From positions 1-44,443 of the forward strand of contig DASYPG010000622.1 of assembly GCA_036006885.1 (NCBI GenBank): DNA of 44,443 nt, in the 5' to 3' direction. Source of the DNA: Burkholderiales bacterium (GTDB taxonomy: Bacteria; Pseudomonadota; Gammaproteobacteria; Burkholderiales; SG8-39). The position numbers were made by a program, and so were the translations under genes. Under the pieces are notes generated by a model that did no database searches, had not been told where the DNA came from, and was given only the letters and a program-made list of their open reading frames with translations. Below, one piece after another: positions 15,261 to 44,443 of this stretch (the stretch's first letter is position 1; every line of letters begins with the position of its first letter).

Positions 15261-15773
15261 TTACTTCACCGACTCGGCGCCCGCCTTGCAGACCACCTCG
15301 TCCTGCGAGCCGGTGCCACCCGAGCAGCCGATCGCGCCGATCAGCTGGCCGTTCACCACGATCGGAATGCCGCCGCGTGAGGCGATGACGTCGTCGAGCG
15401 TCAGCAGGTAGTTGTTGCCGCCCTGTACGCCGGCCTCGAACGCCTTGGTCTCGCGCCGGTACATCGCGGCCGCCCGAGCCTTGTGCTCGGAGATCGCAAT
15501 GGAGCCGAGCTGCGCGCCGTCCATGCGAGCGAAAGCAACCAGGCGCCCGCCCGAGTCGACCATCGCGACGTTCAGCTTCCAGCCGCGCTTCTTCGACTCG
15601 GCAATAGCGGCGCTGATCGCTGCCTGCGCCTTGTCGAGCGAGATCGGCGTGCCGTAGGGAATGTCGTTCGGCATCTTGTCCGGAACGTTGTCCATCGGAT
15701 TCGGTTGCTGCGCCATGGCGCAGGTTGCAAGCGCGAGCGAGGCGCTCGCGAGGACCGCTCTCACATGTTTCAT
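15261..15773 (-). CDS. GlcG/HbpS-like (DUF336) protein, exported form
   Basis: Signal peptide MKHVRAVLASASLALATCAMAQ. DUF336 core VAMVDSGGRLVAFARMDGAQ...GGIPIVVNGQLIGAIGCSGGTGSQDE. GAGAGGAAA RBS. Confidence 0.8.
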   Translation of the reverse strand: MKHVRAVLASASLALATCAMAQQPNPMDNVPDKMPNDIPYGTPISLDKAQAAISAAIAESKKRGWKLNVAMVDSGGRLVAFARMDGAQLGSIAISEHKARAAAMYRRETKAFEAGVQGGNNYLLTLDDVIASRGGIPIVVNGQLIGAIGCSGGTGSQDEVVCKAGAESVK

Positions 15774-15812
15774 TGTTTCCTCTCTGGGTGAACTGACTAC
15801 GCAGGTAAACAC

Positions 15813-16223
15813 TTATCCAAGCGCTTTGATTCCGGCGGCGATGATCTGCTCGTCCTCGTGCGACTGTACGCCCGAGGCGCCGATGCCGCCGACGCAGACG
15901 TTGTCGACGACGATCGGCAGGCCGCCCTGCACCGGCGTGATGCCCGGCATGCCGAGCATCGAGTTGCGGCCCGCCTTGATGCGCTCCTCCCACACCAGCG
16001 TCGAGCGCCGCGTTTCCGCCGCGGTCTTGCCCTTGGCGATGGCGGCGCGCGCGTTGAAGGGCGAAGCGCCGTCCATGCGGATCAGGTGCAGCAGGTGGCC
16101 GCCGTCGTCGAGGATGGCGATGGCGACGATCCAGTTAAAAGGATAGGAAATTCCTTCGCGTCCGTTCCGCGAAATGCGCGCGCCTGCGGCGTGTCCGGGT
16201 CGCTGAGCGGTACGTCTCGCCAT
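15813..16223 (-). CDS. GlcG/HbpS-like (DUF336) protein, no signal peptide; start uncertain
   Basis: Core IAILDDGGHLLHLIRMDGAS...GGLPIVVDNVCVGGIGASGVQSHEDE. The N-terminal 30 aa are atypical. Confidence 0.7.
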   Translation of the reverse strand: MARRTAQRPGHAAGARISRNGREGISYPFNWIVAIAILDDGGHLLHLIRMDGASPFNARAAIAKGKTAAETRRSTLVWEERIKAGRNSMLGMPGITPVQGGLPIVVDNVCVGGIGASGVQSHEDEQIIAAGIKALG

Positions 16224-16453
16224 GATCGATCCTGGCCGCGGCTGCGCGCCCGGCACCCAAAAGCGGTCTTATGGCAAATAATCTTGACCGCCTGCGCGGA
16301 TGCGGCGCCGGCCGCAAACGCAAAGCCGGCAGCGAGCGCGATTCCTTCCGCGGTTTTCACCATGCGCATTTTTGCGCTCCGAAAGTGGGCGGATTCTAAA
16401 CCGGAACAGCGCGCAGGGCGGGTACCCGGATGACGCCGCGGCCCGCGAATTTC

Positions 16454-16492
16454 TTGACCGTCGGGAATTGCGGAGTACACTGAATAAATTCC
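16454..16492 (+). promoter_or_regulatory. Candidate sigma70 promoter of the Rieske operon, with an inverted repeat over the -10 element
   Basis: TTGACC (16454-16459), 16-nt spacer, TACACT (16476-16481). The inverted repeat GGAATT (16464-16469) / AATTCC (16487-16492) brackets the -10. Confidence 0.4.
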
Positions 16493-16505
16493 TGAGGGGG
16501 ATCGG

Positions 16506-16817
16506 TTGGGCTGGCAAGAGGTGGCGGGCGCGCAGTCGCTCGGCGAGGACGAGGCCATCGGCGTGGTGCTGGGCGACAAGCCCGTCGCGCTGATCCGCAG
16601 CGCCGGCAAGCTCTACGCGCTGCACAATGTCTGCACGCACCAGTTCGCGCTGCTTTCCGACGGCTATGTCGAGGACGGCTGCATCGAGTGTCCGCTGCAC
16701 CAGGGGCGGTTCGATCTCGAGACGGGCGAGCCCAAGGCGCCGCCGGTCACCGAGCCGGTGCGCGTCTATCCGGTGAAGTCCGAGAACGGCAGGGTGTTCG
16801 TCGACCTCGATGGCTGA
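16506..16817 (+). CDS. Rieske-type [2Fe-2S] ferredoxin component of an aromatic ring-hydroxylating oxygenase
   Basis: 103 aa with a TTG start. CTHQ...17 residues...CPLHQG (CxH/CxxH Rieske ligands). Confidence 0.85.
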   Translation: MGWQEVAGAQSLGEDEAIGVVLGDKPVALIRSAGKLYALHNVCTHQFALLSDGYVEDGCIECPLHQGRFDLETGEPKAPPVTEPVRVYPVKSENGRVFVDLDG

Positions 16818-18048
16818 GCGCATCGTCATCGTCGGCGCCGGGCAGGCGGGGGGCCGCGCCGCCGAGGCGTTGCGCGCGGCCGGGAATGTCGGCGAGATCG
16901 TGCTCTTCGGCGAAGAGCGCCACCGGCCCTACGAGCGGCCGCGGCTCTCGAAGAGCGTGCTCGCCGGCGAGGAGCCCGCCGCGACCGCGAGCATGCATCC
17001 GCAGGAGTGGTACGCCGCGCACGGCATCACGCTGCGCACGCAGCTGCGCGTCGAGGCCATCGCGCCGAAGAGCCGCGCGGTGATCACCGCCGATGGCGAG
17101 CGCCTCGAATATTCGAAGCTTCTGCTGTGCACCGGCAGCCGCGTGCGGCCGCTCCCGGGGGCGCCGGACGTCGCCGGCGTCCATTACCTGCGCACGGTGG
17201 AAGAGAGCGAGCGTCTCGCCGGGGGATTGCAGCCGGGCCGGCGCCTGGTGGTCATCGGCGGCGGCTTCATCGGGCTGGAGGTCGCCTCCAGCGCGCTCAA
17301 ACGCGGGCTCGAGGTCACGGTGGTGGAACGCCAGCGCGCGCTCCTCGACCGCGTGCTGCCGGGCCAGATCGCCGCGCGGGTCGCTGCGCTTCATAGCGCG
17401 CAGGGCGTGAAGCTGCGGCTCGGCGCGCCGGTCGAGCGGATTCAGGCAAACGGCTCGGGCAACGGTGGCGTGAAGTCGGTCGAGCTCGCCGACGGCACGC
17501 AGCTCGCGGCCGATATCGTGGTGATCGGCGTCGGCATCATCCCGAACACCGAGCTCGCCGAAACCGCGGGCGCCGCCTCCAACGACGGCATCGTGGTCGA
17601 CGAGCACTGCCGCACCACGCTCGAGGACATCTACGCGGCGGGCGACTGCACCAACCACTACAACCCGATCCTCGGGCGCCGCGTGCGGCTCGAGTCCTGG
17701 CAGAACGCGCAGAACCAGGCGATCGCAGCGGCCCACAATATGGCCGGCAAGCCGCGGTCCTACGCCGAGGTGCCGTGGTTCTGGTCCGACCAGCTCGGCA
17801 CCAACATCCAGATGGTCGGCGTCGCCGAGCCCGGGATGGACATCGTGTGGCGCGGCGAGCGCCTGGCCTTCGGGCTGCTCGACGGCCGCCTGCGCCTCGC
17901 CCTCGGGTTCAATATGGGCGGCGAGATCCGCTTCGCGCGGCGCCTGATCGAGGCGCGCGCTCAGGTTTCAGCCCGGCGCCTGGCCGATGCCGCGGTCGGG
18001 CTCAGGGACCTTCTCACGGAGGCGACATGTTCAGCGTCAACACCGTAA
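16810..18048 (+). CDS. FAD-dependent NAD(P)H:ferredoxin reductase (pyridine nucleotide-disulfide oxidoreductase family)
   Basis: FAD motif IVIVGAGQAGGRAAEAL, NAD motif LVVIGGGFIGLEVAS, and PYERPRLSK. 8-nt overlap with the ferredoxin gene. Confidence 0.9.
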   Translation: MAERIVIVGAGQAGGRAAEALRAAGNVGEIVLFGEERHRPYERPRLSKSVLAGEEPAATASMHPQEWYAAHGITLRTQLRVEAIAPKSRAVITADGERLEYSKLLLCTGSRVRPLPGAPDVAGVHYLRTVEESERLAGGLQPGRRLVVIGGGFIGLEVASSALKRGLEVTVVERQRALLDRVLPGQIAARVAALHSAQGVKLRLGAPVERIQANGSGNGGVKSVELADGTQLAADIVVIGVGIIPNTELAETAGAASNDGIVVDEHCRTTLEDIYAAGDCTNHYNPILGRRVRLESWQNAQNQAIAAAHNMAGKPRSYAEVPWFWSDQLGTNIQMVGVAEPGMDIVWRGERLAFGLLDGRLRLALGFNMGGEIRFARRLIEARAQVSARRLADAAVGLRDLLTEATCSASTP

Positions 18049-19322
18049 TCCACCAGCCGGGCAGCTTCGCCAAGGAGCAGCTCGACGAGTCGTTCGAGTA
18101 CAAGTGGCCCGAGGGCGGGCTGCAGTACATCCCGGACTGGGTCTACACCAGCCCGGCGATCTACCAGCGCGAGATCGAGCGCATCTTCCACGGCGCGACG
18201 TGGAATTTCGTCGCGCTCGAAGCCGAGATCGCCAATCCCGGCGACTACAAGCGCTCCTACGTCGGGCCGACGCCGGTGGTGGTCGCGCGCGACACCGATG
18301 GCAGCGTGCACGTGTTCGAGAACCGCTGCGCGCACCGCGGCGCGGAGTTCTGCCGTGCGCAGCGCGGCAACACCAAGGAATTCGTCTGTCCCTACCACCA
18401 GTGGACCTACGACCTGAAGGGCAACCTGCAGGGCGTGCCGTTCAAGCGCGGCATCAAGGGCGAGGGCGGCGGCATGCCGAAGGAGTTCAGGAACGAGGAG
18501 CACGGCCTCTTTAAGTTCAACGTGACGACGCTGCACGGCGTGGTGTTCGCCTCGTTTTCCAAAGACGTGGAGCCGATCGAGCAGTACCTCGGGCCCGAGA
18601 TCCTCAGGGACTTCGAGGTGGTCTTCAAAGGCCGCAAGCTCAGGATCCTCGGCTACTACCGCAACGAATTGCCGGGCAACTGGAAGCTCTACCACGAGAA
18701 CCTGAAAGACCCCTACCACGCCACGCTGCTGCATTCCTTTCTCGTCACCTTCGGCCTGATGGTCGCGGGCAGCAAGAACGGCATGATCGCCGACGCGAAG
18801 GGCCGCCACGGCACGCTCGCGTCCGCCAAGCCCGAGAACGTAGCCGAGGCGGTCGGCGCGGTGAAGGGCGAGATGCGCGCCTATCGCGAGGACTTCAAGC
18901 TCGCCGACGGCCGCTTCCTGCAGTACGTGCGCGAGTTCGACTCGCCGTGGTCGGTCACCATGCAGACCATCTGGCCGAACCTGATCGTGCAGCGCGAGCT
19001 GAACACGCTGGGCGTGCGCCACATCGTGCCGAACGGACCGCACAGCCAGATCATGCTGTGGACCATGTTCGGCTACGACACCGACGACGAGGAAATGGTG
19101 CGCCATCGCCTGCGCCAGGGAAATCTCATGGGTCCCTCCGGCTTCCTCGGGCTGGAAGACAACGAGGCCATCAAGTTCGTGCAGGAAGGGCTGCGCCGCT
19201 CGCCGTCCGACAAGGGCGTGGTCAAGCTGGGCGGCACCACGCAGGGCACGACGCACGCGGTGATCGACGAGGCGGCGATCCGCGGAATGTACGCCTACTA
19301 CCGCAAAGAAATGGGCCTTTGA
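18027..19322 (+). CDS. Rieske non-heme iron oxygenase alpha subunit (salicylate-5-hydroxylase/NagG-like by eye)
   Basis: Rieske CAHRGAEF...CPYHQW. Mononuclear iron motif ENLKDPYHATLLH. GGAGG lies 6 nt upstream of the ATG at 18027. Confidence 0.9.
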   Translation: MFSVNTVIHQPGSFAKEQLDESFEYKWPEGGLQYIPDWVYTSPAIYQREIERIFHGATWNFVALEAEIANPGDYKRSYVGPTPVVVARDTDGSVHVFENRCAHRGAEFCRAQRGNTKEFVCPYHQWTYDLKGNLQGVPFKRGIKGEGGGMPKEFRNEEHGLFKFNVTTLHGVVFASFSKDVEPIEQYLGPEILRDFEVVFKGRKLRILGYYRNELPGNWKLYHENLKDPYHATLLHSFLVTFGLMVAGSKNGMIADAKGRHGTLASAKPENVAEAVGAVKGEMRAYREDFKLADGRFLQYVREFDSPWSVTMQTIWPNLIVQRELNTLGVRHIVPNGPHSQIMLWTMFGYDTDDEEMVRHRLRQGNLMGPSGFLGLEDNEAIKFVQEGLRRSPSDKGVVKLGGTTQGTTHAVIDEAAIRGMYAYYRKEMGL

Positions 19323-19831
19323 TGTATCCGGGCTACGAGATGGCGCCGCCGGATCCGCGCACCACGCGCGAGCTGCGCCTGGAGATCGAGGAATTCCACG
19401 CCGCGTATTGCTGGACGCTCGATTGCGGCGATGTCGAGCACTGGCCCGAGTACTTCACCGAGGACGCCGTGTACCGCATCACTGCGCGCGAGAATGCCGA
19501 CGCCGGCCTGCCGGTGGGCCTGGTTTACGCCGATTCCAGGGCGATGATCCGCGACCGCGCCTTCGCGCTCAAGCACACGCAGATGTATGCGCCGCGCACG
19601 CTGCAGCACCTGGTGACCAATGTACGGGTGCTGCAAGCCAAGGGCGACGCGATCAAGGCGCAGTCGAACTACCTGCTGCTGCAGACGCTGGTCGACGGTC
19701 CGACCACGATCCAGCAGTCGGGGCGCTATTACGACACCTTCGTGCGCAAAGGCGGCAAGCTCCTGCTGAAAGAGCGCCAGTGCATTTACGACACCGTGCT
19801 GATCGCCAACGACCTGGTGCTGCCGGTCTAG
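19322..19831 (+). CDS. Ring-hydroxylating oxygenase beta subunit (SnoaL/NTF2-like)
   Basis: 169 aa. TGATG junction with the alpha subunit. EIEEFHAAYCWTLDCGDVEHWPEYFTEDAVYRI is typical of beta subunits. Confidence 0.85.
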   Translation: MYPGYEMAPPDPRTTRELRLEIEEFHAAYCWTLDCGDVEHWPEYFTEDAVYRITARENADAGLPVGLVYADSRAMIRDRAFALKHTQMYAPRTLQHLVTNVRVLQAKGDAIKAQSNYLLLQTLVDGPTTIQQSGRYYDTFVRKGGKLLLKERQCIYDTVLIANDLVLPV

Positions 19832-19851
19832 CCGGCCAAGGAGGATTTGCC

Positions 19852-20343
19852 ATGCCTGTCGCCCGCCATCCGCTGCCAGCCGAGCTGGCCGGCGTCCCGC
19901 TCAAGGAGCTGCTGCGCCGGCACGTCGGGCGCTTTCGCGACAAGAAACCCGACTGGAGCGCGTTCGATGACGCGAAGATCGAGGGCTACAAGCGCGCCCA
20001 GCACCGCTTCATCGGCGGCGGCGGGTCCGGCAAGCACGACGATCCCAGCGTCATCCCGGCGCGCGGCTTCACGCTCTCGATCATGTACGTGAAGCCGGGC
20101 CAGGGAAATGCCGCGCATACCCACGAGGTGGAGGAGTGCTTCTTCGTGCGGGAGGGGATGCTCACCGTGTTCGTCGAGGACGAGCACGGCAATCGCGAGC
20201 AGACGCGCCTTTCCGAGTGGGAGTGCATCGCGTGCCCGCCGGGTGTGATCCACGGCTACGTGAACGACAGCCTGGAGCCGGTGTACTTCCATGCGGACGA
20301 GCAGCTCTATGCAAGGCGCGACGCGCACTTGAAGGCCGGGTGA
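19852..20343 (+). CDS. Single-domain cupin metalloprotein
   Basis: Cupin motif 1 PGQGNAAHTHEVEE, motif 2 CPPGVIHGYVN. AGGAGG RBS. Confidence 0.8.
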   Translation: MPVARHPLPAELAGVPLKELLRRHVGRFRDKKPDWSAFDDAKIEGYKRAQHRFIGGGGSGKHDDPSVIPARGFTLSIMYVKPGQGNAAHTHEVEECFFVREGMLTVFVEDEHGNREQTRLSEWECIACPPGVIHGYVNDSLEPVYFHADEQLYARRDAHLKAG

Positions 20344-22691
20344 CCAGGTTCGTCGGACAATCGGTGCTGCGGCGGGAAGACGACCGCCTGCTCTGCGGCG
20401 GCGGGCAGTACGTCGCCGACCTGCAGCTGCCGCGGATGCTGCACGCGGTGTTCGTGCGCAGTCCCGTGGCGCATGCGCGCATCCGCTCGGTCGACAAGTC
20501 GCGCGCGCAGCAGGCGCCGGGCGTGGTGCTGGTGCTCGACGGCAGCGAGCTGCAGGCGGCGCTGCCGCCGGTGCGCGACAACCAGCTGCCGCTGCCCGGT
20601 AAATGGAAAGCCGCGATCGAGCATCGCATCCTCAATCCGCGACAGCCGCTGCTCGCGGTGGACAAGGTGCGCCACGTCGGCGAGGCGCTCGCGGTGGTGG
20701 TGGCCGAGTCGCCGGCCGAGGCAGAGGACGCCGCGGAGCGGGTTGCGGTCGAGTACGAGGATCTGCCGGCGGTGGTCGATCCCGAAGCCGCGCTGAAGCC
20801 GGGCTCGGCGCTGGTTCACGAGCGGCTGCAGACCAATGAGATCGGCTGGTTCGCGGTGCGCAAAGGCGATGCCGGGCGCGCATTGGCGGGCGCGCCGCAC
20901 CGCATCCGGCGCCGCTTCGCGCATCACCGCTATGCTGCGATGCCGATGGAATGCCGCGGTGTCGCCGCCGACTACGACCGGCGCACCGGCAGCTACACGG
21001 TCTGGTCCTCGACACAGGTCGTGCACTGGGTGCAGCGCGAGACCGCCACGACGCTCGGCGTCCCCGAAGCGCGGGTGCGCTGCATCGCGCCGGACGTGGG
21101 CGGCGGCTTCGGCCTGAAGGGCCACGTCTATCCCGAAGACATGCTGCTGCCGTTCCTCGCGCGGCGCGTCGCGCGGCCGGTGCGCTGGCTGGAAACCCGG
21201 CGTGAGCACCTGAGCTGCTCGTGCCATTCGCGCGACCAGCTGCACGATGCGGAGATCGGCTTCGACGGCGAGGGACGCATCCTCGCGTTGCAGGACCGTT
21301 TCACTGTCGACTGCGGCGCATGGAATCCGCTCGGCGTGGCGGTCGTGTACAACACCGCGGCGCATCTGTGCGGGCCTTACCGCATCGCCCACCTCGACAT
21401 CGAAGCTCGCGTGGCGGCCACCAACAAGGTACCGAATGCGCCCTATCGCGGCGCCGGACGCCCGGAGGCCACGCAGGTCATGGAGCGGCTGGTGGACCTC
21501 GTGGCGCGCGAGCTCGGCCTGGAGCCGGCGGAAGTTCGCCGCCGCAACATGGTGGCCGCTCACGAGATGCCGTTTGCGCTCGGCATTCCTTATCGGGACG
21601 GCGAGCCGGTGGTTTACGACAGCGGTGACTATCCCGCGGCGCTGGCAAAGGCGCTCGATGCCCTGGGGGGCCTGGAGCCATTCCGGCGGCGCCAGCGCGA
21701 GGCGCGCGCGCAGGGCCGCTATCTCGGGCTCGGCCTGGGCTGCTATACCGAAGGCACCGGGGTGGGCCCGTTCGAAGGCGCCACGGTGCGCATCGACGGC
21801 TCGGGGAAGATCTGCGTGTTCTCCGGCGCGGCCGCACAGGGGCAGGGGATGGAAACCGTCTTCGCCCAGATCGCGGCCGACGCCTGGAGCGTGACGCCCG
21901 ACGACGTAGCGGTGGTGCTGGGCGACAGCGCTGCGATCCCGATGGGCTTCGGCACGCTCGCGAGCCGCTCCACGGTCAACGTCTCGGCTGCGATCCGGCA
22001 GGCGAGCGACAAGCTGCGCGAAAAGGCCTTCGCCATCGCCGGCCACCTGCTGGAATGCGCCGCCGCCGACCTGGAGCTGCGCAACGGCGCGGTCGGCGTT
22101 GCCGGGGTCCCGGGCGCGCAGGTCTCGCTCGCCCAGCTGGCGCACGCTTCGCGTCCCGGCTGGGACCACCGCCGCCCGAGCGGCGTCGACGCCGGCCTGG
22201 AAGAGACCCACTACTACGAGCCGCCAACCGTCACCTGGGCCTACGCCACCCACGCGGCCATTGTCGAGGTCGACGTCGAGACCGGCCGCGTGAAAATCGA
22301 GCGCTACGTGGTGGCGCATGACTGTGGCGTGCTGGTGAACCCGATGCTGGCCGACGGCCAGGTGGTCGGCGGCGTGGTGCAGGGCGTCGGCGGCGCGCTC
22401 GCGGAGGCGATCGCCTACGACGCGCACGGCCAGCTCCTCAGCGGCACGTTGATGGACTACGCGATGCCGATCGCCACCGACGTCCCCGGCATCGAGCTGG
22501 TGCACCTGCAGACGCCCTCGCCGCTCAACCCGCTGGGCGTCAAGGGACTGGGCGAAGGCGGCGCGATCGCGCCGCCGGTGACGCTCGCCAACGCGGTGTG
22601 CGACGCGCTTTCGCCGTTCGGCATCGAGCTCAACGAGACCCCGATCCGGCCGGAAAAACTGATGCGGAATCTTTCGTCATGCCAGCGCTGA
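20340..22691 (+). CDS. Molybdopterin-dependent hydroxylase large subunit (xanthine dehydrogenase/CoxL family), copy 1, with no adjacent S/M subunits
   Basis: 783 aa. GTGA overlap with the cupin stop. PDVGGGFGLKG, APYRGAGRPEA, C-terminal VKGLGEGGAIAPP. Confidence 0.9.
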   Translation: MTRFVGQSVLRREDDRLLCGGGQYVADLQLPRMLHAVFVRSPVAHARIRSVDKSRAQQAPGVVLVLDGSELQAALPPVRDNQLPLPGKWKAAIEHRILNPRQPLLAVDKVRHVGEALAVVVAESPAEAEDAAERVAVEYEDLPAVVDPEAALKPGSALVHERLQTNEIGWFAVRKGDAGRALAGAPHRIRRRFAHHRYAAMPMECRGVAADYDRRTGSYTVWSSTQVVHWVQRETATTLGVPEARVRCIAPDVGGGFGLKGHVYPEDMLLPFLARRVARPVRWLETRREHLSCSCHSRDQLHDAEIGFDGEGRILALQDRFTVDCGAWNPLGVAVVYNTAAHLCGPYRIAHLDIEARVAATNKVPNAPYRGAGRPEATQVMERLVDLVARELGLEPAEVRRRNMVAAHEMPFALGIPYRDGEPVVYDSGDYPAALAKALDALGGLEPFRRRQREARAQGRYLGLGLGCYTEGTGVGPFEGATVRIDGSGKICVFSGAAAQGQGMETVFAQIAADAWSVTPDDVAVVLGDSAAIPMGFGTLASRSTVNVSAAIRQASDKLREKAFAIAGHLLECAAADLELRNGAVGVAGVPGAQVSLAQLAHASRPGWDHRRPSGVDAGLEETHYYEPPTVTWAYATHAAIVEVDVETGRVKIERYVVAHDCGVLVNPMLADGQVVGGVVQGVGGALAEAIAYDAHGQLLSGTLMDYAMPIATDVPGIELVHLQTPSPLNPLGVKGLGEGGAIAPPVTLANAVCDALSPFGIELNETPIRPEKLMRNLSSCQR

Positions 22692-22708
22692 GCAGGGAGG
22701 TGAGGTAA

Positions 22709-24082
22709 ATGGCGATCCACGTAAAGTGCGGCACGCTCTTCACCGGCAGCGAGGATGCCGAACGCAGCCGGCAGACCTTGATCGTCGACGCCCACGGCCG
22801 GCTCGCCCATGTCGGGCCCACCGACCGCGCGCCCCCTGCCGCCGAAGGCGACGAGGTGCTGGATTACGCGGATCTGTTCGTGATGCCGGGGCTGCACGAC
22901 GTGCACACCCACCTCGCCTACGGCAACGCCAAGACCGAGGAGGACATCGATCTCTACCAGCCGATGGAGTTCCGCGCGCTGCGCGGCCTGTTCTTCGCGC
23001 AGAAGTGCCTGTCGGCCGGCTACACCTCGATCTGTGCGCCGGGCGACGCCGGGCAGATCAGCCTCTCGGTGCGCAATGCGATCAACTTCGGCCTGTTCGA
23101 CGGGCCGCGTGTCACCGCGGCCGGACGCTATCTCACCACGCGGCAGGGCCTCACCGACTGGTATCCGACCTGGATCGGCGTGCCCGACACCTCGATCGGC
23201 CGCCTGGTGACGAGCCGCGACGAGTCGATCGAGGAAATCCGTGTGCAGGTGAAGAACGGGGTCGACTGCATCAAGGTCGCCTTGGACGGCGTGCAGCGCC
23301 GCCCGGACGGCGAGCTGATCGCCGCTTTCAACCAGGAGGAGATCGACGCCATCGTGCGCGAGGCGCATCGCCTCGGGCGCAAGGTGGTGGTGCACGCGCG
23401 CGGCCGGGAGGCCACGCTCTACGCCGCGCGCGCGGGCGCCGACCTCATCTTCCACGCCTACTACCTCGACCAGGAATGCATCGACGCCATGCTCGAGAGC
23501 GGCTCGACGATCGGGCCGACGCTCACCTTCCCGAGGAACATCGTCGATTTCACCCGTCCCAGCGAGCCGGCGTTCCTCAAGGGGCGCATCGGCGACGTGC
23601 AGCGCGAGTACCAGACCGCGTGCGACAACCTGCGCAAGGCGCGCCACGCCGGCATCCCGATGATGACCGGCAGCGACTCGGGCTTCGCGGTCACGCCTTA
23701 CGGCGAATGGCATGCGCGCGAGATCGAGATCTTCGTCAACGACCTCGGCTTCACCCCGGCGCAGGCGCTGCGCGCGGCGACGCAGGTCACCGCGGGGTTC
23801 ATGGCCAAGGGCACTTCGCTCGGCGTGCTCGAGCCAGGGCGTGCCGCCGACTTCATCGCGCTGGCCGGCTCGCCGCTGAAGAACGTCGCCCTGCTGCAGG
23901 ACAAGAAGCGCATCCGGCATGTGCACCTCGCCGGCAAGCGCATCGAGCTGCCCGATCGTCCCTACGACCCGCGCGAGGTGACCGACCAGGCGTGGACCAA
24001 CTGGAACGACCTGTATACCCAGTCGCGGGTGGCCGAGCTCGGCATCCTGCCCGAACGCAAAACGTGCGCCGTTTCGCCCTGA
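22709..24082 (+). CDS. Metal-dependent amidohydrolase-superfamily protein
   Basis: MPGLHDVHTHLAYG (HxH), VVVHARG, TGSDSGF (catalytic Asp region). GGGAGGTGAGG RBS. Confidence 0.85.
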   Translation: MAIHVKCGTLFTGSEDAERSRQTLIVDAHGRLAHVGPTDRAPPAAEGDEVLDYADLFVMPGLHDVHTHLAYGNAKTEEDIDLYQPMEFRALRGLFFAQKCLSAGYTSICAPGDAGQISLSVRNAINFGLFDGPRVTAAGRYLTTRQGLTDWYPTWIGVPDTSIGRLVTSRDESIEEIRVQVKNGVDCIKVALDGVQRRPDGELIAAFNQEEIDAIVREAHRLGRKVVVHARGREATLYAARAGADLIFHAYYLDQECIDAMLESGSTIGPTLTFPRNIVDFTRPSEPAFLKGRIGDVQREYQTACDNLRKARHAGIPMMTGSDSGFAVTPYGEWHAREIEIFVNDLGFTPAQALRAATQVTAGFMAKGTSLGVLEPGRAADFIALAGSPLKNVALLQDKKRIRHVHLAGKRIELPDRPYDPREVTDQAWTNWNDLYTQSRVAELGILPERKTCAVSP

Positions 24083-24834
24083 TCGGCTATGGCGCAATTG
24101 CCGAAGAGATGGTGCGCTGCCTCGGCACGCTGGACGAAATGCCGGCGCTCGCCGGCGTGCTGGTGCGCCGGGAACGGCAGGCCGGGCTGGCGGGCAGGTT
24201 CGCCGTCGTGAGCGACGTCGACGCCTTGATGGCGCTTCACCCCGAAGTGGTCGCCGAGTGCGCCGGCCATGACGCGGTGAGCGAGTTCGGCGCGCGGGTG
24301 CTCGAGCGCGGTGCGCACCTCCTGTGCGCCTCGGTCGGCGCGCTGGCCGCGCCGGGCCTCGCGTCGCGGTTGGCGCGAGCAGCAGTGGCGGGCGCACAGA
24401 TCCTGATTCCCTCGGGCGCCATCGCGGGCGTCGACGGGCTGCTCGCCGCGCGCAGCGCCGGACTGCAGCGCGTCACCTACACCTCCATCAAGCCGCCGGC
24501 GGCGTGGGCGGGCATGCCGGCGGACCGGCGCGAGGTGTTCTTCGAAGGCAGCGCGCGCCAAGCGGCGCTGCGCTACCCGCAGAACGCCAACGTGGGAGCG
24601 ACCGTGGCCTTTGCCGGGCTCGGGCTCGATCGCACCCGGGTGCGGCTGGTGTCGGACCCGCAGGCGAGCGGGCCGCTCGGGATCATCGAGGCCGAGGGCG
24701 ACTTCGGCCGCATGCGCTTCGAGATCCTGGCCTACGCGTCGCGCAACCCGAAGACCTCGACGCTGACTGCGCACAGCATGGTGATGGCGCTGCGCGAAGG
24801 CATGGCCTTCGCGCTGCCGCCTCAGGACGCGTAG
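24064..24834 (+). CDS. Aspartate dehydrogenase-like (NadX/DUF108 family) NAD(P)-dependent dehydrogenase
   Basis: GTG start. RFALIGYGAIAEEM Rossmann start, SGAIAGVDGL and PQNANVGATVA blocks typical of the family. 19-nt overlap with the amidohydrolase. Confidence 0.7.
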   Translation: MRRFALIGYGAIAEEMVRCLGTLDEMPALAGVLVRRERQAGLAGRFAVVSDVDALMALHPEVVAECAGHDAVSEFGARVLERGAHLLCASVGALAAPGLASRLARAAVAGAQILIPSGAIAGVDGLLAARSAGLQRVTYTSIKPPAAWAGMPADRREVFFEGSARQAALRYPQNANVGATVAFAGLGLDRTRVRLVSDPQASGPLGIIEAEGDFGRMRFEILAYASRNPKTSTLTAHSMVMALREGMAFALPPQDA

Positions 24835-25487
24835 ATGATCACGCCCATCGCCGTGGGATTGAAGCCGTTGCAGGGATTGCGCTCCTGCGGACAATTCGAG
24901 ATGCCGACCACCAGGTCCATCTCCGCGCGGAGGTCATAGTGATCGCCCGGCTTGCTGGTCGGCTCGCGGATCTCCATATTGCCGCGCTCGTCGACCTCGA
25001 CGCGCATGAAGGGCACGAAGGCGTCGGGAATGCGGCGCGCGCTGAACCCCCAGTCCTTCAGCGCCATGGCGAAATTGTCGCGGCAGTTTCGCGTGCCGGC
25101 GACGCCATAGCGGACGCGGTTGACCTCCTCGCTGCACATCGGCCCGTAGGCATAGCTGAGCTCGTTCGAGTAGCCGGTGATCGTCATCATGGGGTTGCAG
25201 ATCACCGAGTACAGCACGTTACCCTTCACCAGCTCGCGCCGCTTGTTGATGAGCAGGCTGTTGCCCATGCTGAGCTCTTCGCTCAGGTCGCGCTGGTTGA
25301 AGCACACGAGGTCGGGGACCTGCTTGCCCTCCATGTCGACGAAGCGCAGGCTCTCGCCCTCCTTCATGGTGAGCGCCGCGTATTCGCGCGCGGGGATGAC
25401 GAACTCGCGCAGCACCTTGCCGGGCAGCGGATGGGTGCGCAGCACCTCGCGCGCGCGCGCTTCGCGCGCAAGCAATTCTTTAGACAT
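24822..25487 (-). CDS. DUF1989 (urea-carboxylase-associated family) protein
   Basis: MSKELLAREARAREVLRTHPLPGKVLREFVIPAREYAALTMKEGESLRFVDMEGKQVPDLVCFN... fits my recollection of the family pattern. The ORF extension to 25691 is unlikely. Confidence 0.75.
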   Translation of the reverse strand: MSKELLAREARAREVLRTHPLPGKVLREFVIPAREYAALTMKEGESLRFVDMEGKQVPDLVCFNQRDLSEELSMGNSLLINKRRELVKGNVLYSVICNPMMTITGYSNELSYAYGPMCSEEVNRVRYGVAGTRNCRDNFAMALKDWGFSARRIPDAFVPFMRVEVDERGNMEIREPTSKPGDHYDLRAEMDLVVGISNCPQERNPCNGFNPTAMGVIIYAS

Positions 25488-28451: not shown

Positions 28452-29507
28452 ATGAGCAACGCCATCGTCGGCGGCGCGATGCTGCCGCACGCGCCGCAAT
28501 TCTTCACCCAGCCGCAGTCCGAGGACCGGGCCACCATCGCCAGCGTGCAGCAGGTCGCGAAGCGCATCGGCGAGCGCCTGAAGGCGCTCGCGCCCGAGGT
28601 GTGGATCTGCATCTCGAACGACCACGCGTTCCAGTTCTTCCAGCGCGTGGCGCCGCCGTTCACGCTGCACGTCGGCGCGCGCGTCGAGGGCGAATTCGCC
28701 GGCCGCCGCTTCTCGCACCCGATCGCAAGCGATCTCGCCTTCCGCCTGGTGCGCGAGCTCTACACCATGGGCTTCGACCCGGCGTTCACCAGCACGGCGC
28801 AGGCGGACTACGCGCTCGGCATCCCGCTCGCCCATGCCGGCATCGAAGGGCCGATCCTGCCGATCTTCGTCAACGCCTACCTGCCGCCGCAGCCGCCGAT
28901 GGAACGTTGCTACGCCTTCGGGCGTGCGCTCGCGCAGGCCCTCGAGCGCGCCGGCGTGCGCGCGGCGCTGATCGCGAGCGGCGGCATGTCGCATTTTCCC
29001 GGCACCGAGCGTTATGCGAATCCCTGTCTCGACTGGGACCTGCGCACGCTTGAGCCGTTGAAGCGCGGCAACCTGCGCTCGCTGCTGGGCTACGACGAGC
29101 GCGAGCTGGACGACACCGGCAATATCGAGCTGCGCTGCTGGGCGATCGCCGCCGGTGCGCTGGGCGAGCGCAAGCCGGACGTGGTGCAGATGGATCCGAG
29201 CTGGCACCACAATTACGCCTCGCTCGGCTGGTGGTCGCCGCCTCCGAGCCAGGCGCCCGCGCCGCACTATCCCAGCATCGCGCCCGAGCTGGTGAACCTC
29301 AGCGAAGCGCTGCATCGCCTGGCGAACGATGCCGACGCCCGCCGCCGCTATGCCGCCGACCCGGCCGCGTTCGGCGACGAATGCGGCGTGAGCGGCGCGC
29401 AGGCGGCGGCGCTCGCCGCGATGGATACGCGGCGGCTGAACGCCCTCGGCGTGCACCCGCTGCTCGCGTTTCTCGCCGAGCTGCACCTCACCAGAGAGAA
29501 AAGCTAG
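28452..29507 (+). CDS. Class III extradiol ring-cleavage dioxygenase, LigB-like domain fused to a LigA-like C-terminal domain
   Basis: N-terminal GGAMLPHAPQF, ISNDHA and ASGGMSHFPG blocks (LigB type). The C-terminal ~80 aa (LHRLANDADARRRYAADPAAFGDECGVSGAQAAALAAMDTRRLNALGVHP) resemble the PCA 4,5-dioxygenase alpha chain. The domain order matches gallate dioxygenase. Confidence 0.75.
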   Translation: MSNAIVGGAMLPHAPQFFTQPQSEDRATIASVQQVAKRIGERLKALAPEVWICISNDHAFQFFQRVAPPFTLHVGARVEGEFAGRRFSHPIASDLAFRLVRELYTMGFDPAFTSTAQADYALGIPLAHAGIEGPILPIFVNAYLPPQPPMERCYAFGRALAQALERAGVRAALIASGGMSHFPGTERYANPCLDWDLRTLEPLKRGNLRSLLGYDERELDDTGNIELRCWAIAAGALGERKPDVVQMDPSWHHNYASLGWWSPPPSQAPAPHYPSIAPELVNLSEALHRLANDADARRRYAADPAAFGDECGVSGAQAAALAAMDTRRLNALGVHPLLAFLAELHLTREKS

Positions 29508-29980
29508 TCGATGCGCAGCGGTCCGCGACCGTATTCGTTGTTGGCCTCGATCAGGCGCGCGAGCGTCGCCATGAAGACATCGCGCTCCTTCTGGCTGAGC
29601 GGCGCGCACATACGGTCCTGCGCGCGCTGCATGCTGGAAAACATCGCCGCGGTGAGCGCGCGGCCGCGCGGCGTGATCCTGGCGAGGCGCGCGCGCCGGT
29701 CGCGCGGATTGGCCTTGCGCGTCACCAGCCGGCGCTTTTCCAGCCGCGAGAGCACTTCCGCCGTGCTGGTGCGGTCGAGGCCGAGCTCCTCGGCGAGCGA
29801 GCTCTGGTCGAGCTCGCCGCGGAAGCTGAGCGCGGTGAGCAGGCCGTACTGCACCGGCGTCAGGCGCGACTCCTTGCATTCTTCGAGGAACAGCGCGCAG
29901 TGGATCTGATGCAGCCGCCGGATCAGGTAGCCGGGTCGCGACCACAGCGGCAGCCGCGTCTCGCGCGCGGGGGAATTCAT
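29504..29980 (-). CDS. MarR-family transcriptional regulator
   Basis: 158 aa. GYLIRRLHQIH..., winged-helix block LTPVQYGLLTAL...LDQSSLAEELGLDRTSTAEVLSRLEKRRLVTRKANPRDRRARLARITPRG. Confidence 0.85.
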   Translation of the reverse strand: MNSPARETRLPLWSRPGYLIRRLHQIHCALFLEECKESRLTPVQYGLLTALSFRGELDQSSLAEELGLDRTSTAEVLSRLEKRRLVTRKANPRDRRARLARITPRGRALTAAMFSSMQRAQDRMCAPLSQKERDVFMATLARLIEANNEYGRGPLRID

Positions 29981-31393: not shown

Positions 31394-32496
<1,103 letters not shown>

Positions 32497-32500
<4 letters not shown>

Positions 32501-34860
32501 GCGAAGGCAAGCCCGGCCAGGGTGTCGGCGCGCGCCTGCTGCGCAAGGAGGACTCGCGCCACCTCCACGGCCGCGGCAGCTTCGTGCCCGACATGATCCT
32601 GCCTGGCCAGCGCGAGGTGGCGTTCTTCCGCTCGCCGGTGGCGCACGCGCGCATCACCGCACTGCGCCGGCCCGCCGGCAGCGAGGGCCGCATCTTCTTC
32701 CGCGAGGACATGCCCGAGGTCAAGGCGATCGTCGCGCCCTCGTCGCTGCCGAGCTTCAAGCTCTCGGAGCAGCACCCTCTCGCCCACGGCAAGGTGCGCT
32801 TCGTCGGCGAGCCGATCGCCTGCTGCGTCGGCCGCACGCGCGCCGAGGCCGAGGACCTGGCCGAGCAGGTCGAGGTGGACTTCGAGGAATTGCCGGCGCT
32901 GGTCGATGCGCACAAGGCTCGCCTCGATCGCGCCAATCGCATCCACGAGGAATGGGACGACAACCTGTATCTCACGCTCTCGCTCGACAACGGCTTCGAG
33001 GCCGAGTCGAAGAAAGCCGACGTGGTGGTGAAGCGCGAGATCGGGCTTTCGCGCCAGTCGATGAACCCGCTGGAAGGCAAGGGCACGCTCGCGGTGTGGG
33101 ACGACCGCGCCAACCAGCTGGTGCTCTACAGCTCCTCGCAGACGCCGCACCTGCTGCGCATCGGCATCGCGCGTTTCCTCGGCCTGCCCGAAGAGAAGCT
33201 GCGCGTCATCGCGCCCGATGTCGGCGGCGGCTTCGGCTACAAGTGCATCGTGTTCCCGGAAGACCTGTGCGTCGCGTGGCTGGCGTTGAGATACCGCAAG
33301 CCGTTCCGCTACATCGAAGACCGCCGCGAGCACCTGGTCGCCGGCGCCAACTCGCGCCAGCACCATTACAACCTCACCGCGTACGCCAGCAAGGAGGGCC
33401 GGCTCCTCGCTTTGGATGCCGAAGTCACCATCGACGGCGGCGCGTACTCGAACTGGCCGTTCACCATCGGCCTCGAGCCCGGGCAGGCGACCGGCAACCT
33501 GCCGGGGCCGTACGACTTCCGCGGCTACCGGGTGAAGACCTATTGCGTCGCCACCAACAAGCCCGGTTTCCTCCCCTATCGGGGCGTGGCGCGCACCGGC
33601 GTGTGCTTCGCGATGGAGCTGATGATCGATGCCATCGCGCGCGCCGTCGACAAGGATCCCTACCAGGTACGGCTGATGAACCTGGTGCGTCCGGAGCAGA
33701 TGCCCTACGACAACGTCGCGCGCAAGCACTACGACAGCGGCGACTATCCGCGCGCGCTGCAGATGGCGCGCGAGCAGCTCGACGTCGAGAAATGGCGCGA
33801 GCGCCAGAAGCGCGGCGAGCCCGACGGCCGCATCATCGGCCTCGGCTTCGCCAGCTACTGCGAGCAGTCGGCGCACGGCACGAGCGTGTTCGCGGCGTGG
33901 GGCCTGCCGATGACGCCGGGGTACGACCAGGCGGCGGTGAAGCTCACCGCGGGCGGCGGCCTGGAAGTCCGCATCGGCGTGCAGTCGCACGGCCAGGGCA
34001 TGGAAACGACGATGGCGCAGCTCGCGCACCAGGTGCTCGGCATCGACGTCGCGCGCGTGCAGGTGGTGCACGGCGACACCGGCACCACGCCGTTTTCCAC
34101 CGGCACCTACGCTTCGCGCTCGATCGTCATGTCGGGCGGCGCCGTGCTGAACGCGTGCAAGGAGCTGATCCCGCGCTTCGTTCGCATCGGCGCGCATCTC
34201 ATGAAATCGCCCGAGGCCGAGTGCCGCTTCGAGGGCGGCAAAGTGGTCGGGCCCGCGGGCGGCGTGAGCCTCGCCGACATCGCGGAAGCCTGGTACATGC
34301 GCCCCGAGCGGCTGCCCGACAACGTCGACCGCCAGGGGCTCGAGGCCTCGCTCGCCTTCAAGCCCAAGCGCGACACCGGCGCCTTCAGCTACGCGTCGCA
34401 CGCGGTCGCCGTCGCCGTCGATCCGGAAACCGGGCAGGTGGAGATCCTCGACTACGTGGTGGTCGAGGACTGCGGCACGCTCGTCAATCCTGCGGTGGTC
34501 GAGCACCAGGCGATCGGCGGCATCGCCCAGGGCATCGGCACCGCGCTCTACGAGGAGCAGCAGTACGATGCCAACGGCCAGCCGAATGCGTCGACCCTCG
34601 CCGACTACCTGATCCCGGGGCCGACCGAGATCCCGAACATCCGCATCTTCCATCTCGAATCGCCGTCGCCGTATACCGAGCTCGGCATCAAGGGCATGGG
34701 CGAGGGCGGCGCCATCGCCCCGCCGGCGGTGATCTTCAACGCGGTCAACAACGCGCTCGATCCCCTCGGCGTGGAAGTGCGCGAGACACCGCTCACGCCG
34801 GAGAAGCTGCTCGCCGCGATCGAAGCGGCGAAGGCGATGCCGAAGCGGGAGGCGGCGTGA
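32497..34860 (+). CDS. Molybdopterin-dependent hydroxylase large subunit (CoxL/XDH family), copy 2
   Basis: 787 aa. GTGA overlap with the binding-protein stop. PDVGGGFGYKC, LPYRGVARTG, IKGMGEGGAIAPP. Confidence 0.9.
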
Positions 34861-35660
34861 AGGCCGCCGCGTTCGACTACCTGCGGCCGCGCGATGTCGG
34901 CGAGGCGCTCGCCGCTCTGCGGACGGCGGACGCGAAGGCCATCGCCGGCGGGCAGTCGCTCGGGCCGATGCTGAACCTGCGCCTGGCGCGACCCAAGCTG
35001 CTGGTCGACGTCTCGCGCATTCCGGCCCTCAAACAGATAGAGGACGAGGGCGATGCGTGGCGCATCGGCGCCGCGGTCACCCACGCGGAGCTCGAGGACC
35101 GGCCGCTGGCCGGCTGCGAGCCGCTCGCCAAGGTGGCGCGCTTCGTGGCGTATCGCGCCGTGCGCAATCGCGGCACGGTGGGCGGCAGCCTGGCGCACGC
35201 CGATCCCGCGGCCGATTGGCCGCTGGTCTGCGCCACCTTGGGCGCCACGGTGCGCGTCATCGGCGCATCCGGAAAGCGCGAGGTAGAGGCCGATGCATTC
35301 ATGACGGCGGCGTTCACCACGCAGCTTGGCGACGACGAGATCGTCGAGTCGATCCGCGTGCCGAAGCTCGGTGCCGGCGCGCGCTGGGGCTACTACAAGT
35401 TCTGCCGCAAGACCGGCGAGTTTCCGCAAGCCGCAGCGGCGCTGCTGCTCGATCCGCAGCGGCGCATCGCGCGCCTCTTCGCCGGGGCGCTCGACCGCCC
35501 GCCGCAGCCCCTCGATACGGTATCGCAGGCGCTGGCCGAGCACGGCGGCGCGAGCGCCGACATGGTGAACGCGGCGCTGGCGCGCGTGGCGCCGGGCCTC
35601 GGACCCGCGGCGCGCAAGCTGCGGGCGACGGCGGTGCAGCGCGCCATCGCGCACGCATGA
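34857..35660 (+). CDS. FAD-binding medium subunit of the molybdenum hydroxylase (CoxM-like)
   Basis: 267 aa with a GTGA overlap. AIAGGQSLGPMLNLRLARP and RNRGTVGGSLAHADP motifs. Confidence 0.85.
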   Translation: MKAAAFDYLRPRDVGEALAALRTADAKAIAGGQSLGPMLNLRLARPKLLVDVSRIPALKQIEDEGDAWRIGAAVTHAELEDRPLAGCEPLAKVARFVAYRAVRNRGTVGGSLAHADPAADWPLVCATLGATVRVIGASGKREVEADAFMTAAFTTQLGDDEIVESIRVPKLGAGARWGYYKFCRKTGEFPQAAAALLLDPQRRIARLFAGALDRPPQPLDTVSQALAEHGGASADMVNAALARVAPGLGPAARKLRATAVQRAIAHA

Positions 35661-36760
35661 AGACGATTCAGCTCACGGTGAACGGCGAAGGCGTGCAGGC
35701 GCTGGTCGAGCCGCGCACGCACCTCGCCGACTTCCTGCGCGACCAGCAACGCCTCACCGGCACGCATCTCGGCTGCGAGCACGGCGTGTGCGGCGCCTGC
35801 ACCATCCTAGTCGACGGCCAGCCGGTGCGCTCGTGCATCACCTATGCGGTGCAATGCGAAGGCGCCGAGGTGCGCACGGTCGAAGGCTTCGAGGACGACG
35901 CGCTGATGAAGGAGCTGCGCGCCGCGTTCTCGCGCGAGTACGCGCTGCAGTGCGGCTTCTGCACGCCCGGCATGCTGATCGCGGCGCGCGACCTCGTCCT
36001 GCGCCTGCCCGGCGCGGACGAGCGGCGCATCCGCGAAGAGATGTCGGGCAACCTCTGCCGCTGCACCGGCTACGTCGGCATCGTGCGCGCGATCTCGTCG
36101 GTGGTGCAGTCGCGCCGCGCGTCGAACGAGGCAGTCGTCACGGAGCTGCCGGGCGCCCCGCCGGCGCCGCGCTTCACACCGGTGGCCGCAAAGAAGGCGC
36201 AAGCGGCGCAGCCGGTGACGGTGGGCGCGGGCACGCGCCTCGAGGACCAGGTGACGGTCCAGCATCCGCTGGACCGCGGGTGGGCGGTGTTCGCCGACAT
36301 GCCGGCAGTGGCGGCGTGCCTGCCCGGCGCGGAGATCACCGAGAGCAACGGCGATGCGGTGAAGGGCAGGATCAGCGTCAAGTTCGGGCCGCTGCGCGCC
36401 GCCTTCGCCGGCGGCGCCACGCTCGAGCGCGACGAGGCGGCGAAGCGCGGCGTGATCCACGGCGCCGGGCAGGACGCGCTGTCGTCCTCGCGCGCGCGCG
36501 GCGACATCGCCTACCAGCTGTTCGACGCCGGCGGCGGCGCGACGCGCATCGCCATCGGCATCGACTACAGCCTGCAGGGGCCGCTGGCGCAATTCTCGCG
36601 CGGCGGCCTGGTGAAAGAATTCGTCGGCCGCATGGTGGCGGAGTTCGGCAGGAACCTGGACGCGCATCTCGCCGGCGGCGCGCGCCGCGCGGCCGAGCTC
36701 GACGCGGGCGGCGTGTTCTGGAAATGGCTCTGGACGCGATGCAAGGCGCTGTTCAACTAG
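35657..36760 (+). CDS. [2Fe-2S] small subunit (CoxS-like) fused to a CoxG-like SRPBCC domain
   Basis: ATGA overlap. N-terminal GCEHGVCGACTILVDG and QCGFCTPGM...CRCTGY clusters. After an Ala/Pro linker, residues ~190-350 look like CoxG (GRISVKFGPLRAAFAG..., LAQFSRGGLVKEFVGRMVAEFGRNL). The tail is GVFWKWLWTRCKALFN. Confidence 0.8.
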   Translation: MKTIQLTVNGEGVQALVEPRTHLADFLRDQQRLTGTHLGCEHGVCGACTILVDGQPVRSCITYAVQCEGAEVRTVEGFEDDALMKELRAAFSREYALQCGFCTPGMLIAARDLVLRLPGADERRIREEMSGNLCRCTGYVGIVRAISSVVQSRRASNEAVVTELPGAPPAPRFTPVAAKKAQAAQPVTVGAGTRLEDQVTVQHPLDRGWAVFADMPAVAACLPGAEITESNGDAVKGRISVKFGPLRAAFAGGATLERDEAAKRGVIHGAGQDALSSSRARGDIAYQLFDAGGGATRIAIGIDYSLQGPLAQFSRGGLVKEFVGRMVAEFGRNLDAHLAGGARRAAELDAGGVFWKWLWTRCKALFN

Positions 36761-44174: not shown

Positions 44175-44443
44175 TTCTTGTAGGCCGGGCGGGCGGCGTA
44201 GACCGCCTCGACGATGTTCACGTGGCCGGTGCAGCGGCAGATGTTGCCCGAGAGCACGTCGCGGATCCGGTCCTTGTCGGCGTCGGGCTCCTCGGTGAGG
44301 AGCGCGTGCGCGGTCATGAGCATACCGGGGGTGCAGAAGCCGCACTGCAGCGCGTGGTGCTTGCGGAACGAGGCCTGCAGCGGCGTGAGGTCCTTGTCGT
44401 TGGAAATTCCTTCGACGGTGGTGACCTTCGCGTCCTCGGCCTG
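44171..44443 (-). CDS. [2Fe-2S]-binding small subunit of a molybdenum hydroxylase (CoxS-like), 3' part only (5' end outside the window)
   Basis: The reverse translation reads ...VTTVEGISNDKDLTPLQASFRKHHALQCGFCTPGMLMTAHALL...LSGNICRCTGHVNIVEAVYAARPAYKK, then stops. Confidence 0.85.
   Translation of the reverse strand, partial: QAEDAKVTTVEGISNDKDLTPLQASFRKHHALQCGFCTPGMLMTAHALLTEEPDADKDRIRDVLSGNICRCTGHVNIVEAVYAARPAYKK

Follow-up and report, generated by a model that had tools for sequence, protein, structure and literature searches.

CoxL1 is the large, molybdopterin-binding subunit (L) of a predicted molybdenum hydroxylase, and its gene lies on a contig of a Burkholderiales bacterium (GenBank assembly GCA_036006885.1, contig DASYPG010000622.1). 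The whole of that 44.4-kb contig (44,443 nt, C622 in our numbering) is the window referred to below; the assembly amounts to 4.6 Mb in 716 contigs, is 92.8% complete and has a G+C content of 68%. The gene sits inside an operon for a Rieske oxygenase, apart from any gene for the FAD subunit (M) or the small [2Fe-2S] subunit (S). The reading we favour, at a probability of roughly 0.7, is that CoxL1 is an ordinary catalytic subunit of an L-M-S hydroxylase, that M and S genes once beside it were lost in its lineage, and that it is now served in trans. Supply of S and M from elsewhere in the genome appears the most likely arrangement on the comparative evidence set out here.

The CoxL1 operon

CoxL1 is encoded by the sixth of eight genes, and all junctions between them are overlaps or gaps of at most 20 nt. 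The features of the operon are as follows.

16454-16481, plus strand: sigma-70-like promoter site, TTGACC-16-TACACT; the sole promoter-like match in 16200-25200, and a consensus match only
16506-16817, plus strand: Rieske-type [2Fe-2S] ferredoxin (Pfam Rieske; best NCBIfam model AndAb, below its cut-off)
16810-18048, plus strand: ferredoxin-NAD(+) reductase (Pyr_redox_2 and Reductase_C; AndAa-like, below the cut-off)
18027-19322, plus strand: Rieske oxygenase alpha subunit (Rieske and Ring_hydroxyl_A); ATG at 18027 with GGAGG upstream
19322-19831, plus strand: Rieske oxygenase beta subunit (Ring_hydroxyl_B / SnoaL_4); its ATG shares one base with the TGA of alpha (TGATG)
19852-20343, plus strand: single-domain metal cupin of 163 amino acids (Cupin_2); ATG at 19852, TGA at 20341-20343
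20340-22691, plus strand: CoxL1, molybdenum hydroxylase large (molybdopterin) subunit of 783 amino acids; GTG at 20340, three Pfam domains
22709-24082, plus strand: Amidohydro_1 metallo-amidohydrolase (Pfam)
24064-24834, plus strand: aspartate-dehydrogenase-like NAD enzyme, the last gene of the operon; GTG start, 19-nt overlap with the amidohydrolase gene

The coordinates and Pfam matches confirm the order ferredoxin-reductase-alpha-beta-cupin-CoxL1-amidohydrolase given in a first-pass annotation of this DNA, together with its 783-residue CoxL-family gene whose GTG overlaps the cupin stop as GTGA; the GTG at 20340 is in frame with the long open reading frame that ends at 22691. The genes described there all stand, and the operon runs one gene further, to the aspartate-dehydrogenase-like (AspDH-like) gene at 24064-24834. 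The product of this last gene scores 227 bits with the NCBIfam aspartate dehydrogenase subfamily model (cut-off 177) and is 64% identical by tblastn to the corresponding gene of a related locus, L001. No convincing terminator was found inside the operon.

A Pfam domain search of the operon (16506-24834) gave no Fer2_2 or FAD_binding_5 gene. The nearest S and M genes begin 12.2 kb downstream, behind a second large-subunit gene, which bears out the distance of 12 kb reported earlier:

32497-34860, plus strand: CoxL2, a paralogous large subunit, 38% identical to CoxL1
34857-35660, plus strand: CoxM, FAD subunit (FAD_binding_5), candidate partner in trans
35657-36760, plus strand: CoxS-CoxG fusion, two [2Fe-2S] domains (Fer2, Fer2_2) followed by SRPBCC (COXG), candidate partner in trans

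Identity and integrity of CoxL1

CoxL1 has the architecture of a large subunit, ie an a/b-hammerhead and two molybdopterin-binding domains in about 750-800 amino acids, with Pfam families PF01315, PF02738 and PF20256 (Ald_Xan_dh_C, MoCoBD_1 and MoCoBD_2) spanning residues 20-716. The start codon is supported by homologs of 778-790 amino acids that align from residue 1-4, and by two close relatives, L088 and L090, which have the same GTG start and N-terminal residues. Among solved structures the best match is QorL, the large subunit of quinoline 2-oxidoreductase (1t3q_B), aligned over the full length with an expectation value (E) of 2.7e-165, followed by KdhL (7dqx, E 1.6e-145) and then by CO dehydrogenases. 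Residues Q226 and E739 and the GGGFG at 254-258 align to Q224, E743 and GGGFG of Qor, the counterpart of Qor Q224 being the Gln that bonds the Mo oxo group and GGGFG the pterin loop. The Mo-site Gln, the catalytic Glu and the GGGFG loop are invariant in an alignment of 81 family sequences. To judge from these features CoxL1 is the catalytic subunit of an L-M-S molybdenum hydroxylase of the canonical type, in the CoxL/QorL branch.

A reading of CoxL1 as a CO dehydrogenase was rejected. The active-site loop, PYRGAGR at 368-374, of which YRGAGR is invariant across the family, is without the Cu-binding Cys of (A/S)YRCS(F/L)R. Among NCBIfam models the best, CODH_aero_grp5, gives 750 where its cut-off is 950, and TIGR02416 (form I CO dehydrogenase) gives 499 where 991 is required.

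Among five orphan orthologs of CoxL1, ie those with no M or S gene found beside them, the ratio of nonsynonymous to synonymous substitution rates (dN/dS) was 0.14-0.20, with dS up to 0.95. M/S-linked members share 332 alignment columns with conservation of at least 90%, and in 301 of these the orphan clade to which the window belongs keeps the same residue. CoxL1 is intact and under purifying selection, not degenerate. The first-pass annotation had named decay of the Mo-cofactor contact residues as a finding that would refute its proposal; with Gln, Glu and GGGFG all kept and dN/dS as low as this, no such decay is seen. That CoxL1 is a functionless relic, left behind after its partners were lost, is the most improbable of the explanations weighed here. 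The absence of cognate M and S genes, described below, would suit a relic, as would a 13-residue deletion in the adjacent cupin, but the frame is intact, all catalytic motifs are kept, the selection just described extends over the orphan orthologs, and the gene has been retained across reshuffled gene orders.

M and S genes across the family

The queries for a scan of 80 genome loci were the window proteins plus every S and M domain encoded in the genome of the window; a tree was then built. M and S lie directly beside L in 21 of the 83 distinct family loci; in 38 both are missing from the 5 kb on either side, and 24 are too short for linkage to be judged. Where they are linked, alphaproteobacterial and marine lineages have M-S-L, and in relatives labelled Polaromonas, Burkholderiales or beta-proteobacterium M-S is divergent from L (L016, a short contig, shows M alone). 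Many of the M/S-linked operons adjoin the same cupin, at 60-66% identity, and the M/S-linked relatives are without a Rieske gene set of the kind found in the window. Linkage is seen in the outgroup clade and in several subclades of the tree, so by this distribution the family is one of ordinary three-subunit enzymes, and linkage has been lost more than once.

The window's clade is well supported and consists of 17 tree rows representing 14 distinct loci, mostly metagenome-assembled genomes labelled Burkholderiales. No M or S gene was found in the available sequence of these 14 loci, only six of which are flanked by 5 kb or more of sequence on each side. Many alphaproteobacterial lineages have also lost the linkage. 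The first-pass annotation held that its proposal would fall if homologous operons always carried S and M genes that were simply lost here; in part this is the case, as distant orthologs do carry them and the window's clade has lost them from the locus.

Fate of the cognate M and S genes

Linked trios were used for calibration. Where the L subunits are 62-70% identical, the orthologous M subunits are 51-62% identical and the S subunits 62-73%. CoxL1 is 65-70% identical to seven M/S-linked relatives, and against the subunits of those seven the best M of the window's own genome reaches 37-45% and the best S 51-60%, which is the level of paralogs. No cognate S/M pair at the ortholog level was found in the assembly, which is 93% complete.

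A complete genome presents the same picture. L072, on the complete 3.4-Mb chromosome G001, is an orphan, and its sister L070 has M-S-L. In G001 no S is more than 59% and no M more than 47% identical to the L070 subunits, and its L gene is a full-length open frame. By these identities the cognate M-S pair is gone from G001 while L persists. Read from the coordinates, each of the 19 S hits in G001 has an L domain hit within about 5 kb, and there are 44 L hits in all. In other genomes L and S hits number 47 and 20, 32 and 15, 26 and 14, and 10 and 9, and in the window's own genome there are about 24 L, 16 S and 11 M hits. L genes are about twice as numerous as S genes in the genomes examined, and solitary L genes are the rule. 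G001 and G002, which carries L070, are alphaproteobacterial chromosomes of 3.4 and 3.9 Mb; their 44 and 47 L against 19 and 20 S hits represent a very large expansion of solitary L genes.

A dedicated cognate pair could also lie in an unassembled or unbinned part of the genome and serve CoxL1 in trans from there, and this we consider unlikely. The assembly, at 92.8% completeness, is broken into 716 contigs, S and M genes are found at the ends of several of them (C385, C529 and C700), and a solitary M gene on contig C426, at 43-51% identity to the family M subunits, falls at the low edge of the ortholog range; all of this leaves room for such a pair. Against it, no S of the assembly is more than 60% identical to the family S, where 62-73% is expected, and the complete G001 chromosome shows a family orphan persisting without cognate M or S.

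The solitary M gene is the best match to the family M subunits in the window's own genome and is a second candidate partner of CoxL1:

L091:1228-2310 (contig C426), minus strand: solitary M gene (FAD_binding_5 and CO_deh_flav_C)

Its neighbours encode a beta-eliminating lyase and an NMT1-like binding protein, and no S or L gene is present on the 3.4-kb contig. Contigs with S or M apart from L were inspected for a partner, and C426, C491 (an L C-terminus, then S) and C413 (S at the contig start) gave no clear one.

Predicted contact with an S subunit

CoxL1 was modelled in complex with the S domain (residues 1-160) of the CoxS-CoxG fusion in three runs, together with three controls. The interface score ipSAE was 0.95 in the three runs and 0.00 in the best of the three controls. 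The runs agreed in at least 98% of contacts, and the predicted local distance difference test score (pLDDT) of the partner was at least 92. In calibration, the mark was reached by 58 of 80 solved complexes and by 2 of 110 mismatched pairs. Structure prediction, which the first-pass annotation had proposed, thus returned the canonical S interface, a pass that may come from likeness. By this model CoxL1 still looks like an S-binding subunit, and the model does not single out this S as its partner.

The predicted contact surface comprises 54 residues, and among the orphans its entropy is 0.46, compared with 0.51 for the rest of the protein. Replacements in the window's orphan clade affect 12 of the positions with at least 95% conservation among linked members, and five of these 12 (126, 286, 500, 673 and 703) are among the 31 predicted-contact invariants, giving an odds ratio of 7.1 (Fisher p = 0.004). 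This enrichment fits a retuning of the surface to a different S. The same Fisher-type comparison for alphaproteobacterial orphans gave no enrichment of replaced positions in the predicted S interface.

Conservation of this surface also bears on whether CoxL1 might need no partner at all. As a stand-alone homodimeric molybdoprotein it would pass electrons to a soluble acceptor or to O2, or would catalyse a non-oxidative reaction, and the twofold excess of L over S genes is compatible with such proteins. All the listed solved relatives, however, are multi-subunit or multi-domain enzymes with Fe-S centres, and the predicted S interface is conserved in the orphans. In the solved enzymes of the family the pterin is buried behind the S-binding face, which also counts against a stand-alone CoxL1. 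We regard this alternative as quite improbable.

Candidate partners in trans

On the comparative evidence, an ancestor had its FAD (M) and 2Fe-2S (S) genes beside L. The window's clade has lost this linkage, with L reshuffled among pathway genes until CoxL1 came to lie behind the cupin gene inside the Rieske operon. The protein would still need S to take electrons from the pterin and M to pass them on. Both would be supplied in trans, the likeliest source being CoxM and CoxS-CoxG, shared with CoxL2; otherwise another of the 16 S and 11 M hits of the genome would be the supplier. Borrowing in trans, one of two arrangements considered in the first-pass annotation, is favoured by the 21 linked loci, the purifying selection, the 301 conserved columns and the modelled S interface.

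That the suppliers are the M and S-CoxG proteins of the island itself, ie of the gene island in the window, we rate at slightly less than an even chance. A fuller proposal is more tentative again. It holds that CoxM and CoxS-CoxG (34857-36760) serve both CoxL1 and CoxL2, that the CoxL1 lineage remodelled its S contacts at 126, 286, 500, 673 and 703 after the loss of its own M and S, and that the excess of L over S reflects mix-and-match hydroxylases built on shared S/M modules. A full-text search with narrow terms turned up no publication on this gene set, or on S/M modules that serve more than one L subunit.

The distribution of the genes among relatives is in keeping with the proposal. In G006, the genome of L001, genes for MarR, amidase, DctP, CoxL2 (90% identity), CoxM (82%) and CoxS-CoxG (78%) come right after the Rieske genes, so that the S-CoxG ortholog is part of the same island there. 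Five further genomes with CoxL1 orphans of the window's clade were checked, and every one has a full-length S-CoxG ortholog (67-80%). An even sample of 150 other genomes from the order yielded no ortholog of either protein, CoxL1 or S-CoxG, so phyletic co-occurrence is uninformative as a contrast.

Several points weigh against supply by M and S proteins encoded elsewhere, or against the island's pair in particular. In G004 CoxL1 and the S-CoxG module are on different contigs, and to judge by contig names the same is true of G008 and G009. Their co-occurrence would fit equally well with consecutive hydroxylations in one pathway or with the relatedness of the genomes. CoxL1 and CoxL2 are only 38% identical, so it should not be assumed that they share one S, and with an assembly 93% complete and split into 716 contigs, the cognate M-S pair could be unassembled. 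The complex model cannot tell one S paralog from another. Because L-S complexes of the family have already been solved, its pass may be recall of a known interface and may only reflect likeness to those complexes. Finally, the enrichment of replaced contacts rests on a predicted interface and on substitutions in essentially one lineage.

Association with the Rieske genes

The exact gene order, including the 4-nt overlap of cupin and CoxL, recurs in three metagenome contigs, L088, L089 and L090, whose CoxL1 proteins are 96%, 96% and 90% identical to that of the window. This answers the question, raised earlier, of whether the cupin-CoxL adjacency is found in other genomes. At 83-85% identity the same gene set is retained in a reshuffled order; in L001 (83%), for example, AspDH and CoxL form one operon, and TRAP (tripartite ATP-independent periplasmic) transporter, cupin, ferredoxin, reductase, alpha and beta genes form another on the opposite strand. 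At 73-77% identity, in L004-L012 and L068, the operon reads CoxL-DctPQM-amidohydrolase-cupin. The amidohydrolase accompanies CoxL1 in orphan loci, and Rieske genes were not found in these ten, several of which are short contigs. The lasting companions of CoxL1 are, on this comparison, the TRAP transporter, the amidohydrolase and the cupin, not the Rieske system, and the placement in a Rieske operon is by the same comparison a recent local rearrangement confined to relatives of at least 90% identity.

These loci also bear on the second arrangement put forward in the first-pass annotation, in which CoxL1 would pass electrons to the co-encoded Rieske ferredoxin and on to the oxygenase or reductase, bypassing S and M. 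CoxL1 does belong to the same operon as the ferredoxin, reductase, alpha and beta genes and is translationally coupled to the cupin, and the same order is kept in the three contigs at 90-96% identity. In L001, however, CoxL1 belongs to a separate, divergent AspDH-CoxL operon, and, with the reservation about short contigs given above, Rieske genes are missing from L004-L012 and L068. Purifying selection on L persists in such orphan loci, the M/S-linked relatives manage without a Rieske set, and in the orphans the predicted S-contact surface is no more variable than the remainder of the protein. We know of no member of the molybdenum hydroxylase family that passes electrons directly to a Rieske ferredoxin. 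The coupling is not supported, because the Rieske genes are missing from most orphan loci, and we hold it to be very improbable.

The cupin of the window has an in-frame gap of 39 nt, or 13 amino acids, after F146 (20287-20292, codon 146/147). The missing residues are present in four of four aligned relatives (69-94% identity). The gap follows the second metal-binding motif. It may impair the cupin, or it may be an artefact of a short stretch collapsed during assembly. A second cupin in the same genome (C356:16360-16875) is 63% identical to the operon cupin and is without the gap; searches for S, M and L domains gave no match on C356.

Comparison with known systems

Qor of Pseudomonas putida 86 (QorMSL, 1t3q) belongs to the same CoxL branch as CoxL1, and the Gln, Glu and GGGFG are common to both. 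Qor is an N-heteroaromatic hydroxylase solved as a three-subunit complex, whereas the CoxL1 operon is without an S or M gene, and the active-site loop is AYRGVGF in Qor and PYRGAGR in CoxL1. The relation of QorL to CoxL1 is that of a best hit only, and the context of CoxL1, with its TRAP transporter, amidohydrolase and cupin, differs.

The ketone dehydrogenase KdhLMS of Paenarthrobacter nicotinovorans pAO1 (7dqx), an enzyme of nicotine catabolism, offers a precedent for a detached L gene such as that of CoxL1. In the pAO1 nic cluster a hydrolase gene separates kdhL from kdhMS, yet the Kdh holoenzyme is an L-M-S complex (PMC10494377, PMC8305194). There kdhL and kdhMS are one gene apart and mutually dedicated, whereas the M and S genes nearest to CoxL1 are 12 kb off, behind another L gene, and are not orthologs of the M and S proper to the CoxL1 family.

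Published loop definitions separate form II CoxL, of the AYRGAGR type, from the Cys-containing form I (PMC13240472). CoxL1 has the YRGAGR of form II, with Pro in place of the first Ala. Form II clusters are arranged coxS-coxL-coxM, whereas linked members of the CoxL1 family are M-S-L or have M-S divergent from L, and form II CoxL has its partners in cis, which CoxL1 does not.

Four-component hydroxylases with an SRPBCC/CoxG-type component also exist, eg the 3-hydroxypyridine dehydrogenase HpdA. In HpdA-type enzymes the CoxG-like part is a separate subunit, whereas that of the island is fused to S and is encoded beside CoxL2, not CoxL1.

Function of the island and neighbouring genes

Taken together, the ferredoxin, reductase, alpha and beta genes form a three-component Rieske oxygenase set of the salicylate 5-hydroxylase/AndA/terephthalate group. 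The closest solved chain to the alpha subunit is the large component of salicylate 5-hydroxylase (7c8z, E 9e-132), with terephthalate dioxygenase also near; the likeness of the Rieske oxygenase genes to AndA is below the NCBIfam cut-off, as are the matches to all NCBIfam equivalogs. The closest solved chains to the amidohydrolase are carboxypeptidase/prolidase-like and ochratoxin-type amidohydrolases. Also encoded in the island are two DctP binding proteins with a single DctQ-DctM pair, an amidase, a DUF1989 protein and an extradiol dioxygenase of the LigB type, a homolog of which (59%) is found close to M-S-L in L083. A MarR gene at 29504-29980 is a candidate regulator common to the stretches 16454-24834 and 31394-36760.

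In L090, genes for a NicX-like protein, an FAD-monooxygenase (NicC-like), TctC and an alpha/beta-hydrolase (L090:2010-6051) precede the Rieske-cupin-CoxL operon, and these neighbours hint at a lower pathway of the 2,5-dihydroxypyridine type. The likenesses to AndA, salicylate 5-hydroxylase, prolidase-type enzymes and AspDH, together with the nicX/nicC-like neighbours in L090, point to an aromatic or pyridine carboxylate. We take the island to be catabolic, and its substrate is probably an aromatic or N-heteroaromatic carboxylate, or else the amide of such an acid.

Further molybdenum hydroxylase genes, located by domain search, lie towards the end of the contig:

39733-41988, minus strand: third large subunit
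41961-44180, minus strand: fourth large subunit
44171-44443, minus strand: second S gene, cut by the contig end

The two large-subunit copies of the first-pass annotation are both present, but the window holds four such genes in total. The tandem pair on the minus strand (39733-44180) follows the one truncated S gene, and its members are mutual closest relatives in the tree. With that S gene (39733-44443) they represent another excess of L over S in the same contig.

The GTG of CoxL2 at 32497 overlaps the DctP2 stop as GTGA (32497-32500), the type of junction seen between cupin and CoxL1. CoxM of the island is 267 amino acids long, and its Pfam/NCBIfam matches (FAD_binding_5) do not extend beyond about residue 200; CO_deh_flav_C was not matched at the threshold used. 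Two HbpS-like genes (PF03928) lie just upstream of the Rieske operon on the minus strand (15261-16256). An HbpS-like gene is also found at L004:1-295, about 10 kb from the CoxL1 ortholog and beside small Fer2 proteins, and weaker matches (34-35%) occur in L017 and L027.

Implications

On the reading favoured here CoxL1 would be a rearranged ordinary subunit, and not a new wiring of a molybdenum enzyme to a Rieske system. The wider pattern is of L genes about twice as numerous as S genes, a complete genome that keeps L without its cognates, and replaced residues that cluster in the predicted S contact. Subunit sharing, if true, would account for the many CoxL-like genes that stand alone and are routinely, but wrongly, annotated as CO dehydrogenase, and would change how CoxL-like genes are counted in metabolic surveys.

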